Source of the DNA: a virus
Lineage: Duplodnaviria > Heunggongvirae > Uroviricota > Caudoviricetes
IMG/VR virus record: IMGVR_UViG_2531839195_000014
Length of the DNA: 7,330 bases
Reading direction: 5' to 3' (one strand)
Positions 2,034-7,247 of this stretch are shown here, in pieces. Numbering within the stretch: the first letter of the stretch is position 1; every line of letters starts with the position of its first letter. The translations under genes and the position numbers were made by a program. The notes under the pieces were generated by a model. That model searched no databases. It saw nothing but the letters and a program-made list of their open reading frames with translations, and had not been told where the DNA came from.

Positions 2034-2097
2034 TGAGGTAGCCTGAGTTTAACGGACACTCCTTCCTGAAATAGAATGGCATCAGAAGGAGCTAATA

Positions 2098-2385
2098 ATG
2101 AGCAGAAAAACCCAACGTTACTCTAAAGAGTTCAAAGCCGAAGCTGTCAGAACGGTTCTTGAAAATCAACTTTCGATCAGTGAAGGCGCTTCCCGATTAT
2201 CCCTTCCTGAAGGCACTTTAGGACAATGGGTTACCGCCGCCAGAAAAGGGCTCGGTACTCCTGGTTCCCGCACGCTGGCTGAACTGGAATCTGAAATTCT
2301 GCAACTGCGTAAGGCGTTAAATGAAGCTCGCCTTGAGCGCGATATATTAAAAAAGCAACAGCGTATTTTGCACAGGAGTCGCTGA
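2098..2385 (+). CDS. IS600-like OrfA (helix-turn-helix transposase subunit), 95 aa
   Basis: Product MSRKTQRYSKEFKAEAVRTVLENQLSISEGASRLSLPEGTLGQWVTAARKG... then a leucine-zipper-like ILQLRKALNEARLERDILKK; RBS GGAG upstream. I recognise this as IS600 ORF1-like. Confidence 0.85.
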   Translation: MSRKTQRYSKEFKAEAVRTVLENQLSISEGASRLSLPEGTLGQWVTAARKGLGTPGSRTLAELESEILQLRKALNEARLERDILKKQQRILHRSR

Positions 2386-2434
2386 AAAATACGCGTTAAT
2401 CGAACAATGGCGACAACAATTTCCCATTGAAGCG

Positions 2435-3226
2435 ATGTGTCAGGTATTTGGTGTATCCAGGAGCGGTTATTACAACTGGGTACAGCATGAACCCTCAGAC
2501 AGAAAACAAAGTGATGAGCGGCTAAAACTGGAGATTAAGGTGGCACATATCCGCACTCGCGAAACATATGGAACCCGGCGGCTCCAGACGGAGCTGGCAG
2601 AGAATGGCATCATCGTTGGTCGTGACCGACTGGCACGTCTTCGTAAGGAGCTGAGGCTACGCTGTAAGCAGAAACGCAAGTTCAGAGCGACTACGAACCC
2701 GAACCACAATCTGCCAGTTGCGCCAAATCTGCTGAACCAGACGTTCGCTCCTACAGCACCAAATCAGGTCTGGGTGGCGGACCTGACGTATGTTGCTGGC
2801 ATCAAAGATGTTTATACGTGCGAAATTGTCGGCTACGCCATGGGAGAGCGCATGACAAAAGAGCTGACAGGTAAAGCCCTGTTTATGGCGCTCAGGAGCC
2901 AGCGCCCACCTGCCGGGCTAATCCACCACTCTGATCGAGGTTCACAGTACTGCGCATACGATTACCGGGTCATACAGGAGCAGTCTGGTCTGAAAACATC
3001 AATGTCGCGTAAAGGTAACTGTTACGACAACGCTCCGATGGAAAGCTTCTGGGGAACGCTGAAAAATGAGAGCCTGAGCCACTATCGTTTTAATAACCGG
3101 GATGAAGCCATCTCAGTAATACGGGAATACATTGAGATTTTCTACAATCGTCAGCGTCGTCACTCTCGTCTGGGGAATATCTCCCCGGCAGCCTTCAGGG
3201 AAAAATATCATCAGATAGCTGCTTAA
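2435..3226 (+). CDS. IS600-like OrfB (DDE transposase catalytic domain), carrying a 27-bp in-frame deletion
   Basis: ATG-initiated ORF; the frame is open from 2351 and is +1 relative to orfA. Contains WVADLTYV...HHSDRGSQY...NAPMESFWGTLKNE, typical of IS3-family DDE/RNase H fold transposases. Lacks the 9 codons TQEGWLYLA that are present in copies 2 and 3. Confidence 0.8.
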   Translation: MCQVFGVSRSGYYNWVQHEPSDRKQSDERLKLEIKVAHIRTRETYGTRRLQTELAENGIIVGRDRLARLRKELRLRCKQKRKFRATTNPNHNLPVAPNLLNQTFAPTAPNQVWVADLTYVAGIKDVYTCEIVGYAMGERMTKELTGKALFMALRSQRPPAGLIHHSDRGSQYCAYDYRVIQEQSGLKTSMSRKGNCYDNAPMESFWGTLKNESLSHYRFNNRDEAISVIREYIEIFYNRQRRHSRLGNISPAAFREKYHQIAA

Positions 3227-3250
3227 AAAAAGAACAAATGGTAGTGTCCG

Positions 3251-3895
3251 CTATTGCCAGTACACCTCAGCCTTAATTGCATCAGTCAGGCGGAGCAGGG
3301 CGGCATTATCCAGAGTTGTCGGTTCTGCCATGCCGCGTATGGCCAACAGCAGATTCTGGACATAGCTGTTTTCCTGATCCATCTCAAGAGCAGTAATGTG
3401 TTTGCGTTGTTCACGGGTGGCATGATGCAGGTATTTCAGATCCCCGGCAGCATACGTAAAAATGTGCAGAAGACGCTGTGTGAACCGCAAAGTGGCTACA
3501 GAGACTTCGCAATCCTGGCAATCCTCGTGGGCGTCTGCCTGCGCGTTTTCTTCCTGGCCTCCCGCCAGTTCTTTGGTTTCTTGAGCATTATCCTGGTGGT
3601 GAACGTCGTCTGGCGCTGCTCCCGGTTTTAGTTCCCATGTCATGGAGTCTTTGCTGAGTTGATAGCGTTCACTCCAGGTAAAATCGATCTCACCTTCAGG
3701 GGGAAGGTCATTAACGACAGGAAAATTTGTGGCAACAGCTTTAAAATAGTTGCTCAGTTTTTTACCTGACTTAACGAGCAGATAGTCCAGAGTGGTGCTG
3801 GTCGATTCAAAATCGTCGCTTGCCCACAGGACGACGTCAGGTTCACCGGATGATTTTTTCGCTTTCCGTAACAGGAAGAGTGGTTTTGTGCTCAT
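3251..3895 (-). CDS. hypothetical protein, about 208 native codons, 3'-truncated and fused to 5 IS-derived codons plus stop
   Basis: Long minus-strand ORF; ATG at rc 3893-3895 with GAGG 9 nt upstream (the listed ORF starts at TTG 3910). The protein has an N-terminal region, an acidic D/E/Q-rich linker ([32 protein letters not shown]) and a C-terminal region. The frame runs through the IS copy 1 junction at 3269/3270, so the last codons (EVYWQ, stop at 3251-3253) are IS sequence. I do not recognise a family. Confidence 0.5.
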
Positions 3896-3964
3896 TGTTT
3901 TTAACCTCAACTCAGATTAAAATTACTGCGAGTGATGAATAAATGTCCCAGGTTCTTCACTCAG

Positions 3965-4022: not shown

Positions 4023-4194
4023 TCAGATTTGCCAGAAATTCGGCTTTTTTTCTGCGGGCAGATTATTTCCGATGTAAACTAGGCACATTTTTGTGGCACC
4101 TTCAACAAGAGTTTTAAAGTTTCCTGATAGACCGTCGATATCAACTACAGTGAATGGGGTTTCTTTATTTTCTGTTTTAATTACGTAGCCAATA
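4023..4194 (-). pseudogene. 3' fragment (last 56 codons plus stop) of the 81-codon gene begun at 1957-2033
   Basis: Minus-strand frame reads (H)IGYVIKTENKETPFTVVDIDGLSGNFKTLVEGATKMCLVYIGNNLPAEKKPNFWQI then stop. Joining 1957-2033 to rc(4194-4023) restores an uninterrupted frame (…AAG CAT ATT GGC TAC…) with a shared TAT triplet at both junctions. The listed ORF 4023-4226 owes its first 11 codons to the IS terminus. Confidence 0.6.
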
Positions 4195-4237
4195 TGAGGT
4201 GTACTGGCAATAGCGGACACTACCATTTGTTCTTTTT

Positions 4238-5055
4238 TTAAGCAGCCATCTGATGATATTTTTCCCTGAAGGCTGCCGGGGAGATATTCCCCAGACGAGA
4301 GTGACGACGCTGACGATTGTAGAAAATCTCAATGTATTCCCGTATTACTGAGATGGCTTCATCCCGGTTATTAAAACGATAGTGGCTCAGGCTCTCATTT
4401 TTCAGCGTTCCCCAGAAGCTTTCCATCGGAGCGTTGTCGTAACAGTTACCTTTACGCGACATTGATGTTTTCAGACCAGACTGCTCCTGTATGACCCGGT
4501 AATCGTATGCGCAGTACTGTGAACCTCGATCAGAGTGGTGGATTAGCCCGGCAGGTGGGCGCTGGCTCCTGAGCGCCTTAAACAGGGCTTTACCTGTCAG
4601 CTCTTTTGTCATGCGCTCTCCCATGGCGTAGCCGACAATTTCGCACGTATAAACATCTTTGATGCCAGCGAGGTACAACCATCCCTCCTGTGTGGCAACA
4701 TACGTCAGGTCCGCCACCCAGACCTGATTTGGTGCTGTAGGAGCGAACGTCTGGTTCAGCAGATTTGGCGCAACTGGCAGATTGTGGTTCGGGTTCGTAG
4801 TCGCTCTGAACTTGCGTTTCTGCTTACAGCGTAGCCTCAGCTCCTTACGAAGACGTGCCAGTCGGTCACGACCAACGATGATGCCATTCTCTGCCAGCTC
4901 CGTCTGGAGCCGCCGGGTTCCATATGTTTCGCGAGTGCGGATATGTGCCACCTTAATCTCCAGTTTTAGCCGCTCATCACTTGTTTTCTGTCTGAGGGTT
5001 CATGCTGTACCCAGTTGTAATAACCGCTCCTGGATACACCAAATACCTGACACAT
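4238..5055 (-). pseudogene. IS600-like orfB, copy 2, frameshifted by a 1-bp deletion
   Basis: Copy 2 has TT at 4981-4982 where copies 1 and 3 have TTT (sense strand AAA to AA). Sense reading becomes ...RKQVMSG-stop shortly after the orfB start; the downstream catalytic region (4238-4951) is intact but out of frame. Confidence 0.8.
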
Positions 5056-5104
5056 CGCTTCAATGGGAAATTGTTGTCGCCATTGTTCGATTAACGCGTA
5101 TTTT

Positions 5105-5392
5105 TCAGCGACTCCTGTGCAAAATACGCTGTTGCTTTTTTAATATATCGCGCTCAAGGCGAGCTTCATTTAACGCCTTACGCAGTTGCAGAATTTCAGA
5201 TTCCAGTTCAGCCACCGTGCGGGAACCAGGAGTACCGAGCCCTTTTCTGGCGGCGGTAACCCATTGTCCTAAAGTGCCTTCAGGAAGGGATAATCGGGAA
5301 GCGCCTTCACTGATCGAAAGTTGATTTTCAAGAACCGTTCTGACAGCTTCGGCTTTGAACTCTTTAGAGTAACGTTGGGTTTTTCTGCTCAT
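5105..5392 (-). CDS. IS600-like OrfA, copy 2 (95 aa)
   Basis: Identical to copy 1 OrfA except L60V (…GSRTVAELE…). Confidence 0.85.
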   Translation of the reverse strand: MSRKTQRYSKEFKAEAVRTVLENQLSISEGASRLSLPEGTLGQWVTAARKGLGTPGSRTVAELESEILQLRKALNEARLERDILKKQQRILHRSR

Positions 5393-5456
5393 TATTAGCT
5401 CCTTCTGATGCCATTCTATTTCAGGAAGGAGTGTCCGTTAAACTCAGGCTACCTCA

Positions 5457-6228
5457 ATTCCCCAGACGAGAGTGACGACGCTGACGATTGTAGAAAATCT
5501 CAATGTATTCCCGTATTACTGAGATGGCTTCATCCCGGTTATTAAAACGATAGTGGCTCAGGCTCTCATTTTTCAGCGTTCCCCAGAAGCTTTCCATCGG
5601 AGCGTTGTCGTAACAGTTACCTTTACGCGACATTGATGTTTTCAGACCAGACTGCTCCTGTATGACCCGGTAATCGTATGCGCAGTACTGTGAACCTCGA
5701 TCAGAGTGGTGGATTAGCCCGGCAGGTGGGCGCTGGCTCCTGAGCGCCATAAACAGGGCTTTACCTGTCAGCTCTTTTGTCATGCGCTCTCCCATGGCGT
5801 AGCCGACAATTTCGCACGTATAAACATCTTTGATGCCAGCGAGGTACAACCATCCCTCCTGTGTGGCAACATACGTCAGGTCCGCCACCCAGACCTGATT
5901 TGGTGCTGTAGGAGCGAACGTCTGGTTCAGCAGATTTGGCGCAACTGGCAGATTGTGTGTTCGGGTTCGTAGTCGCTCTGAACTTGCGTTTCTGCTTACA
6001 GCGTAGCCTCAGCTCCTTACGAAGACGTGCCAGTCGGTCACGACCAACGATGATGCCATTCTCTGCCAGCTCCGTCTGGAGCCGCCGGGTTCCATATGTT
6101 TCGCGAGTGCGGATATGTGCCACCTTAATCTCCAGTTTTAACCGCTCATCACTTTGTTTTCTGTCTGAGGGTTCATGCTGTACCCAGTTGTAATAACCGC
6201 TCCTGGATACACCAAATACCTGACACAT
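5457..6228 (-). pseudogene. IS600-like orfB, copy 3, 1-bp insertion frameshift and 3' truncation
   Basis: Extra T at 5958 (GATTGTGTGTTCGGG versus GATTGTGGTTCGGG in copy 2) shifts the frame after ...RATTNPN. The 3' end is cut at 5457, and the listed ORF 5454-5888 terminates in copy 2 IRL sequence. Confidence 0.8.
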
Positions 6229-6277
6229 CGCTTCAATGGGAAATTGTTGTCGCCATTGTTCGATTAACGCGTATTTT

Positions 6278-6565
6278 TCAGCGACTCCTGTGCAAAATAC
6301 GCTGTTGCTTTTTTAATATATCGCGCTCAAGGCGAGCTTCATTTAACGCCTTACGCAGTTGCAGAATTTCAGATTCCAGTTCAGCCACCGTGCGGGAACC
6401 AGGAGTACCGAGCCCTTTTCTGGCGGCGGTAACCCATTGTCCTAAAGTGCCTTCAGGAAGGGATAATCGGGAAGCGCCTTCACTGATCGAAAGTTGATTT
6501 TCAAGAACCGTTCTGACAGCTTCGGCTTTGAACTCTTTAGAGTAACGTTGGGTTTTTCTGCTCAT
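6278..6565 (-). CDS. IS600-like OrfA, copy 3 (95 aa)
   Basis: Protein identical to copy 2 OrfA. Confidence 0.85.
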   Translation of the reverse strand: MSRKTQRYSKEFKAEAVRTVLENQLSISEGASRLSLPEGTLGQWVTAARKGLGTPGSRTVAELESEILQLRKALNEARLERDILKKQQRILHRSR

Positions 6566-6869
6566 TATTAGCTCCTTCTGATGCCATTTTATTTCAGGAA
6601 GGAGTGTCCGTTAAACTCAGGCTACCTCACATGTCTCTGGCGCAATGCCCGGGCTTTTTATTCGCACATCGTGAGGAATGCACCGTGGAAATTAAAAAAT
6701 CATTAATCCCCGTTATACCGAAAGTGGCGCAGTAGACTGTGACGTTTTTTTTGACGACAGGGACCAGGCAGTCCCCTACACAGCCACCGCTGATGATGTC
6801 GCACCGACGGGTCAGCGAATCTGGCAGGAACTGCAAAGTGGCAAATGGGGTGAGATAGCCCCATTCACT

Positions 6870-7247
6870 GTGACACCAGAAATGCTGGAAGCGGCCAGAG
6901 AGGCCAGACGTCAGGAAATTGAAGCATGGCGCACAGAACAGGAGGCGAAGCCGTTCACGTTTGAATGGAACGGTCGTATCTGGAATGCTGGCCCCAACTC
7001 ACTGGGCCGCCTTTATCCGGTGGTAATGGCTGCGAAATCCGACATTGTACGGGACGTGATGACGTGGGGTGATGCCGATAATCAGCAGGTGAAACTGTCG
7101 ATGCCGGAACTGGAAGAACTGGCGGCAGCAATGGTGCAGGCGCAGGTCGATCGCAACGATGAGATTTATCGCCGTCAGCGTGAAATGAAAGAGGAGCTGA
7201 GCGGTCTGGATGATTTGGCTTCAATTCGGGCGTTTGACGTTGAGTAA
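6870..7247 (+). CDS. phage tail-associated DUF4376-like protein (tail-fibre-assembly-like region); 5' end disrupted or uncertain
   Basis: Product …EMLEAAREARRQEIEAWRTEQEA…MTWGDADNQQVKLSMPELEELAAAMVQAQVDRNDEIYRRQREMKEELSGLDDLASIRAFDVE resembles, from memory, the DUF4376 family found beside prophage tail-fibre genes. The frame is open upstream to 6696 with coding-like sequence but no start codon or RBS before GTG 6870 / ATG 6882. The stop overlaps the next start (TAATG). Confidence 0.45.
   Translation: MTPEMLEAAREARRQEIEAWRTEQEAKPFTFEWNGRIWNAGPNSLGRLYPVVMAAKSDIVRDVMTWGDADNQQVKLSMPELEELAAAMVQAQVDRNDEIYRRQREMKEELSGLDDLASIRAFDVE

Follow-up and report, generated by a model that had tools for sequence, protein, structure and literature searches.

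Copy 1 of the insertion sequence (IS) IS600 in a 7,330-bp contig of Shigella flexneri (hereafter the window, i.e. the whole stretch analysed; IMG/VR virus record IMGVR_UViG_2531839195_000014) has lost 27 bp in frame from orfB, the gene encoding the DDE domain of its transposase. This deleted form is a recurrent S. flexneri variant, already known and carrying an NCBI annotation name of its own, ISSfl10. We propose, at a probability of roughly 0.7, that copy 1 is a non-autonomous derivative of IS600 that is catalytically dead and has been spread by trans-mobilisation or gene conversion. Because the deletion is a gap between paralogues of more than 99% nucleotide identity (copy 1 against copies 2 and 3 of the window, and likewise against NCBI-named IS600 elements), chance is not at issue. 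An exact-protein look-up identified the window as the entire draft contig AKMZ01000023.1 of S. flexneri assembly GCA_000268025.1. The 263-aa OrfB of copy 1 is found unchanged under the accessions ADA73232.1, EIQ31638.1, CDX06143.1 and EJL17225.1, with names that include "S. flexneri 2002017"; the strain of the window is probably S. flexneri K-404, the name with which EIQ31638.1 is listed.

The 27-bp deletion and the part of strand beta2 it removes

Copy 1 (2034..3269, + strand) is 1236 bp long in the window, with the ends TGAGGTAGCC... and ...TACACCTCA. As expected of the IS3 family, it is bounded by imperfect inverted repeats ending 5'-TG...CA-3'. The left repeat (2034..2060, + strand), of about 27 bp and beginning with 5'-TG, is kept in all copies, and the right one (3243..3269, + strand), ending in CA-3', is intact, so that transposase supplied in trans could still act on the element. 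Compared with undeleted IS600 of 1264 bp, copy 1 has 3 to 8 substitutions, and the 120 bp around the deletion junction are, the 27-bp gap apart, 100% identical to sequences annotated as "IS3-like element IS600 family transposase" in 3,269 E. coli records. Its orfA (2098..2385, + strand; HTH_Tnp_1, Pfam PF01527, 74.6 bits) encodes 95 aa here and 100 aa in other assemblies. Its orfB (2435..3226, + strand), with the deletion in the DDE (rve) domain, is open and encodes 263 aa, versus 272 aa in the undeleted form. The OrfB product matches HTH_21, rve and rve_3/rve_2 of Pfam as well as transpos_IS3 of NCBIfam, with scores well above the family thresholds (68.2 bits for Pfam rve, cut-off 32.6; 300 bits for transpos_IS3, cut-off 160).

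The three IS600 copies of the window were aligned with MAFFT. Copy 2 (4195..5456, − strand) lies in the opposite orientation to copy 1 and retains the 27 bp, and copy 3 (5457..6629, − strand), present only as the 1173 bp proximal to the left inverted repeat, abuts the left end of copy 2. A clean gap of 27 columns in copy 1 is the only one in that part of the alignment. There copy 1 has GACGTATGTTGC|TGGCATC (t2791 g t t g2795 c2796 | t2797; with longer context, GTATGTTGC|TGGCATC), the junction falling at 2796/2797, where copies 2 and 3 carry CACACAGGAGGGATGGTTGTACCTCGC and accordingly read GACGTATGTTGC-CACACAGGAGGGATGGTTGTACCTCGC-TGGCATC. The 27 bp without counterpart in copy 1 occupy 4668..4694 (− strand) in copy 2, exactly where the initial annotation of the window, made from the sequence alone, had placed them, and 5839..5865 (− strand) in copy 3. 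The junction (2794..2797, + strand) contains a GC at 2795-2796; since GC stands at both edges of the deletion, three registers are equivalent and the exact microhomology is 2 bp, in agreement with the earlier remark that a GC was all that the two flanks share. A looser 9-nt repeat, GTAtgTtGC / GTAccTcGC, with matches at 6 of its 9 positions, is found around the deletion.

At the protein level, copy 1 encodes WVADLTYVAGIKDVYTCEIV and copies 2 and 3 encode WVADLTYVATQEGWLYLAGIKDVYTCEIV; orfB of copy 1 is read through the junction as WVADLTYVAGIKDV. The residues lost are T122 to A130 of OrfB (TQEGWLYLA), starting six residues past the first catalytic Asp. This Asp (D116 of OrfB; D81 of the 237-aa open reading frame (ORF) on which the structural model described below is numbered) is encoded at 2780..2782 (+ strand), four codons upstream of the junction, and is kept in 106 of 107 family representatives. 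The second catalytic Asp (D176 of OrfB, 2933..2935, + strand) is the aspartate of HHSD, 60 residues downstream of the first, and not that of IKD; it corresponds to D141, which is invariant in the family alignment and follows directly after strand beta4 of the model. The catalytic Glu (3041..3043, + strand), in the context APMESF, corresponds to E177, which is nearly invariant and lies on the helix at 174–186 of the model, and the translation of copy 1 also has a Lys seven residues after the Glu (ESFWGTLK). Alignment and translation agree with the original description of the deletion as in frame and situated between the first and second catalytic Asp (here D116 and D176), and with the statement that the reading frame remains open; it has 263 aa, and the codons for D, D and E are all kept.

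Conservation of the lost segment was assessed in the 107 representatives of 50%-identity clusters, each 41–66% identical to IS600 OrfB. All nine residues were present, ungapped, in 107 of 107, and the individual counts along T-x-E-G-W-L-Y-L-A were T 95, E 83, G 100, W 93, L 83, Y 101, L 95 and A 92, placing this motif among the best-conserved stretches of the catalytic domain. The family scores reflect its loss: Pfam rve gives 68.2 bits for copy 1 as against 91.5 bits for the undeleted ORF of copy 2, and transpos_IS3 drops from 411 to 377 bits with the deletion.

The undeleted domain was modelled with AlphaFold2 from a 93-sequence alignment, used in place of 22 close IS600 relatives, whose shallow alignment had given a model that was discarded (predicted local distance difference test score, pLDDT, 37.7). 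The model (pLDDT 95.0; predicted template-modelling score 0.89) has strand beta1 at 77–87 (with D81), a turn at 88–89, beta2 at 90–99, ending at the invariant but non-catalytic D99, beta3 at 104–111, alpha1 at 116–130, beta4 at 137–140, then D141, and the helix bearing E177. It superposes on integrase cores, e.g. the integrase of human T-cell leukaemia virus 2 (HTLV-2; 6qbt, template-modelling score 0.81, root-mean-square deviation 2.6 Å), and also on TnsB and IstA. A search with the single sequence of the undeleted domain against PDB sequences returned chance matches only (Nop56, E about 0.08). The profile of the 93 representatives matched integrases of simian T-cell leukaemia virus (STLV), HTLV-2 and Rous/avian sarcoma virus (RSV/ASV) in the PDB, with E values of 3e-4 to 1e-2, and aligned the motif with beta2 of the STLV and RSV integrases, the strand after the one bearing the catalytic Asp.

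Judged on this model of the undeleted domain, the deletion (87–95) takes the final residue of beta1, both residues of the beta-turn and six of the ten that make up beta2, so that copy 1 lacks the complete beta1-beta2-beta3 meander, with the first Asp on beta1, that characterizes the fold. The view of TQEGWLYLA as a conserved strand motif between the first two catalytic Asp residues is upheld both by its ungapped presence throughout the family sample and by the high-confidence model. Since beta2 is the central partner of the strand carrying the first Asp and none of the family representatives is without the motif, conservation and model together predict that the shortened OrfAB fusion protein is most likely catalytically dead, and the earlier statement that the transposase of copy 1 is "probably non-functional" appears well founded on the same two grounds.

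Distribution of the deleted form in Shigella flexneri

The deleted form was found at three loci. At the locus of the window, the identical junction is present in five other assemblies, namely the complete genome LM651928.1, AGRC01000018.1, AWOX01000040.1 and two IMG/VR prophage contigs; copy 1 is 1237 bp long (1264 minus 27) in other assemblies of the locus with both ends present. At the second locus, detected by a scan of species-representative genomes, the junction is within shiA, the shikimate transporter gene adjacent to amn, in CP182556.1 and CP178302.1. The element there is likewise 1237 bp long and is flanked by a perfect 3-bp target duplication (ATG/ATG), and its OrfB is AAN43594.1 / NP_707887.1, named S. 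flexneri IS600 ORF2 in the collection. The third locus, represented by eight loci from at least nine contigs, lies between a phage lysozyme gene with IS66 remnants and a truncated int next to ybhC; its elements are again 1237 bp long. The same 43-nt junction occurs at all three loci, and the presence of the deleted element at several loci implies copying of the element itself.

In the two genomes with an IS600 in shiA (L005, 1-6446, against L006, 1586-8000), the left flank and the entire IS are identical; beyond the right end of the IS the sequences are about 4% divergent (163 differences in 3.6 kb), and both genomes have the ATG duplication. As the divergence starts at the first base past the right end of the IS, a recombination boundary coincides with the IS end in these genomes.

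A 42-mer specific to the junction had no match in 5,426 complete E. coli genomes or in PLSDB plasmids, and the 43-nt junction pattern had none in JGI metagenome contigs. Whether other genomic copies carry the same allele had been raised as a point to check; its presence at three S. flexneri loci means that it is not private to copy 1. The possibility that the short form is the common and transposition-competent allele of this IS finds no support either, given its absence from the E. coli genomes and its three loci as compared with the 35 chromosomal IS600 copies of S. flexneri 301 (PMC7373316, S1 Table).

Four OrfAB proteins of 376 aa (385 minus 9), which NCBI names "IS3-like element ISSfl10 family transposase", all have the deletion, whereas all 385-aa OrfAB proteins returned in the homology search are labelled IS600 family and do not have it. 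ISSfl10 is used here in the sense of NCBI annotation, which took the name from an S. flexneri entry in ISfinder, and the comparison was made with the NCBI proteins. The literature mentioning ISSfl10 consisted only of lists of software matches.

Target site, prophage surroundings and contig quality

Copy 1 has no 3-bp duplication in the window, its flanks being TAT and GCC. However, a prophage ORF of 81 aa has been divided in two: the 5' half borders the left end of copy 1 (1957-2033, + strand), the 3' half borders copy 2, which is inverted, at its right end (4023-4194, − strand), and each half ends in TAT. Put back together, the two halves give 217 bp that occur without interruption in 1,707 E. 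coli genomes, with a best match of 99.1%. The split ORF with TAT at both halves, together with the empty site in E. coli, shows one IS600 insertion at TAT and a subsequent inversion between inverted IS600 copies, by which the target duplication of copy 1 was separated. On this arrangement of sequences, copy 1 itself is a recombinant product of the IS-IS inversion. The alternative that copy 1 is not a true insertion, suggested by the missing duplication, was rejected in view of the TAT at inverted copy 2 and the empty site.

The surroundings of the IS600 copies are a decayed lambdoid prophage remnant. It includes a Rha/Ash regulator ORF (893-1585, + strand), an N-terminal fragment of a RecE-type exonuclease (Exonuc_VIII; 3251-3910, − strand) caught between two inverted IS600 copies, and a DUF4376 ORF resembling tail fibre assembly proteins (6870-7247, + strand). 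Longer assemblies of the locus contain an ipaH-type effector gene (LRR_TTSS and NEL) and pgl downstream of the prophage ORFs. The contig begins within another IS3-family element (1-281, − strand), which we take to resemble IS2 on account of its terminal sequence and of the 121-aa and 301-aa ORFs in one of the other assemblies of the locus (L001).

The programmed-frameshift region of copy 1 (2349..2394, + strand) contains a run of A, which is A6G here, and then a 34-nt hairpin at 2361-2394. All three copies of the window have A6G (2349-2355 in copy 1, about 5140-5146 in copy 2 and about 6313-6319 in copy 3); other assemblies have A7G or, in copy 1 of the prophage locus, A7T. With the A6 run, orfA ends early as ...KKQQRILHRSR* (95 aa) and orfB is in the +1, not −1, phase relative to orfA, whereas the A7 of all other assemblies of copy 1 gives the canonical −1 phase. 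It is therefore probable that the A6 of the window is a homopolymer under-call in the draft contig. The A7T variant, seen in copy 1 of L001 (5599-6835), L004, L007 and L008, is a G to T change directly after the slippery run, which causes A87S in OrfA and may affect the efficiency of frameshifting.

The other two copies are irregular as well. In copy 2, orfB is frameshifted by one missing A of an AAA run near 4981-4987; this copy encodes an intact 272-aa OrfB in assemblies L001 and L003 of the locus. In copy 3, orfB is frameshifted by an extra A near 5958 (CC becomes CAC). With the deletion in copy 1 and these frameshifts in copies 2 and 3, the window as assembled contains no intact transposase gene. 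The partial tandem copy 3 is absent from the L001, L003, L007 and L008 assemblies of the locus and looks like a misassembly or a strain-specific rearrangement; taken with the frameshifts, it resembles the homopolymer and repeat-assembly errors of a draft contig. These irregularities do not affect the 27-bp deletion. In L008 (IMG/VR UViG_2537561618_000015), copy 2 (11306-12543) was found to have a 25-bp out-of-frame deletion, reading GTATGTTG|TAC|TGGC, for which gene conversion by copy 1, a hotspot of deletion at this place or a chimeric draft assembly would account.

Competing readings and relation to known systems

According to the explanation we prefer, copy 1 would represent a small sub-lineage of IS600 (IS3 family) confined to S. 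flexneri, in which the deletion probably arose once, by replication slippage or microhomology-mediated joining at the GC dinucleotide inside the imperfect 9-nt repeat. Loss of most of the strand pairing with that of the first Asp would abolish catalysis or folding of the core, while the shortened OrfAB would retain its N-terminal DNA-binding and multimerisation parts. The element would then have been copied to at least three chromosomal sites as a non-autonomous IS600, either by transposase from the approximately 35 other IS600 copies of the genome or by gene conversion between IS copies, two routes that the available sequences cannot separate. The element's two inverted repeats are retained, and in other assemblies so are orfA and the frameshift signals. 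Features typical of a non-autonomous derivative are its intact ends, its occurrence at three loci (one with a target duplication) and the undeleted copies alongside, to which we add, by inference, the transposase defect and the mobilisation in trans.

Several points weigh against this explanation. An active element would look alike, being found at three loci, with a clean duplication at one of them and with orfAB open in many complete genomes, and the predicted inactivity is argued from conservation and a model of the undeleted protein. IS3-family transposases, as known from work on IS911, prefer to act in cis, which makes trans-mobilisation inefficient. In a sparse table of single-nucleotide polymorphisms (SNPs) covering deleted and undeleted copies, with too few synonymous and non-synonymous changes for inferring selection, no SNP besides the deletion unites the deleted ones, and the R68C and C-terminal MTA, MAA or IAA polymorphisms are mosaic and common to undeleted copies, so that descent by transposition is inseparable from gene conversion. 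The first of these points would be accounted for if the shortened transposase were still active and ISSfl10 an autonomous IS, the hairpin re-forming with VAG as a tight turn and IKDVY as a short beta2, and such activity would fit the target duplication, the retention of all three catalytic residues and an orfAB that is otherwise undisrupted in at least nine complete genomes and annotated by NCBI as an intact transposase. We nevertheless consider it unlikely, since none of the 107 representatives lacks even one residue of this highly conserved motif, 6 of the 10 residues of the partner of the first-Asp strand are gone, the family scores fall by 23 to 34 bits, and the element was found at only three loci, against 35 IS600 copies per genome, with none in the E. 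coli genomes.

Doubtful, though quite conceivable, is the proposal that the multi-locus spread reflects gene conversion or recombination among resident IS600 copies, or recurrence of the deletion at a hotspot, rather than transposition. It would agree with the mosaic distribution of polymorphisms across deleted and undeleted copies, with the recombinant origin of copy 1 itself in the IS-IS inversion, with copy 2 of L008, which combines the A7T mark of copy 1 with a 25-bp deletion at the same place, and with the shiA genomes, which diverge directly beyond the right end of the IS. However, the 43-nt junction is the same at three loci despite an exact microhomology of 2 bp, which makes independent recurrence unlikely; no strain with an undeleted IS600 at the shiA or int-ybhC site was seen among the very few genomes examinable; and the L008 case may be an artefact of draft assembly. 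That the 27-bp deletion is itself a sequencing or assembly artefact of a short, IS-rich draft contig is virtually out of the question: although the contig has probable artefacts elsewhere (A6 for A7, the single-base frameshifts and the partial tandem copy 3), the same junction is present at the same locus in five independent assemblies, one of them a complete genome, which excludes such an error, and it recurs at two other loci in more than 10 complete genomes, the exact protein having several GenBank accessions. It could also be imagined, by analogy, that the deleted OrfAB is a trans-dominant inhibitor that poisons mixed multimers or occupies IS600 ends and is retained at several S. flexneri sites to damp IS600 activity, because its helix-turn-helix, leucine-zipper and end-binding parts are kept; the KP derivative of the P element and the Tn5 inhibitor protein are precedents, but we hold this role to be very improbable for the IS600 variant.

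The deletion variant is a case of ordinary mobile-element decay, and its importance is slight beyond bookkeeping. Public genomes have contained the allele for years; the small additions made here are the mapping of the deletion to strand beta2 and its multi-locus distribution. What the ISSfl10 label denotes in annotations is most likely not a distinct IS but an IS600 whose catalytic core is crippled, a distinction useful for counting potentially active IS600 copies or for using insertion sites as S. flexneri lineage markers; the three fixed sites are potential phylogenetic markers. Should the shortened protein prove to have activity or to inhibit, it would offer a natural means of probing the need for beta2 in a DDE core or IS self-regulation, but nothing here points in that direction.

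Among known systems, IS600 itself (IS3 family, IS3 group; 1264 bp; Shigella and E. coli) has the same inverted repeats as copy 1 and is over 99% identical to it outside the deletion. IS600 and the variant in other assemblies have in common an orfA of 100 aa, a 0/−1 arrangement, an A7G slippery run, a downstream hairpin and a 3-bp target duplication. They differ in that orfB of IS600 encodes 272 aa, whereas the deleted element, without T122-A130, is 1237 bp long, with an OrfB of 263 aa and an OrfAB of 376 aa. The NCBI "ISSfl10 family" proteins of 376 aa (P0124-P0127), which are OrfAB without TQEGWLYLA, have the WVADLTYVAGIKDV junction exactly as in the OrfB of copy 1. These proteins are from the int-ybhC locus, while the copy of the window lies elsewhere and shows a few substitutions (M270I; R68 rather than C68); moreover, they are OrfAB fusions, whereas copy 1 has A6 for A7 in the window, so that no OrfAB fusion can be read from the contig.

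Comparison can also be made with more distant systems. Internally deleted transposon derivatives such as KP of the P element likewise combine an in-frame transposase deletion with intact ends, several copies and autonomous copies alongside; unlike KP, the IS600 variant was found in three copies only, and an inhibitor activity would be hypothetical. In retroviral integrase cores (HTLV-2, RSV and human immunodeficiency virus; Pfam rve), beta1 and beta2 align with the D-x-T and next strand of the IS600 family, at about 16–20% identity to the IS600 domain; their beta1-beta2 turn is shorter, and none has a beta2 of half length. IS911, IS2 and IS3 show the same domain order (helix-turn-helix, leucine zipper and DDE), production of OrfAB by −1 frameshifting, and TG...CA ends. 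They transpose by a copy-out-paste-in pathway via a figure-eight and a circle, as intact IS600 is presumed to do, and their catalytic core is complete, whereas copy 1 is without most of beta2.

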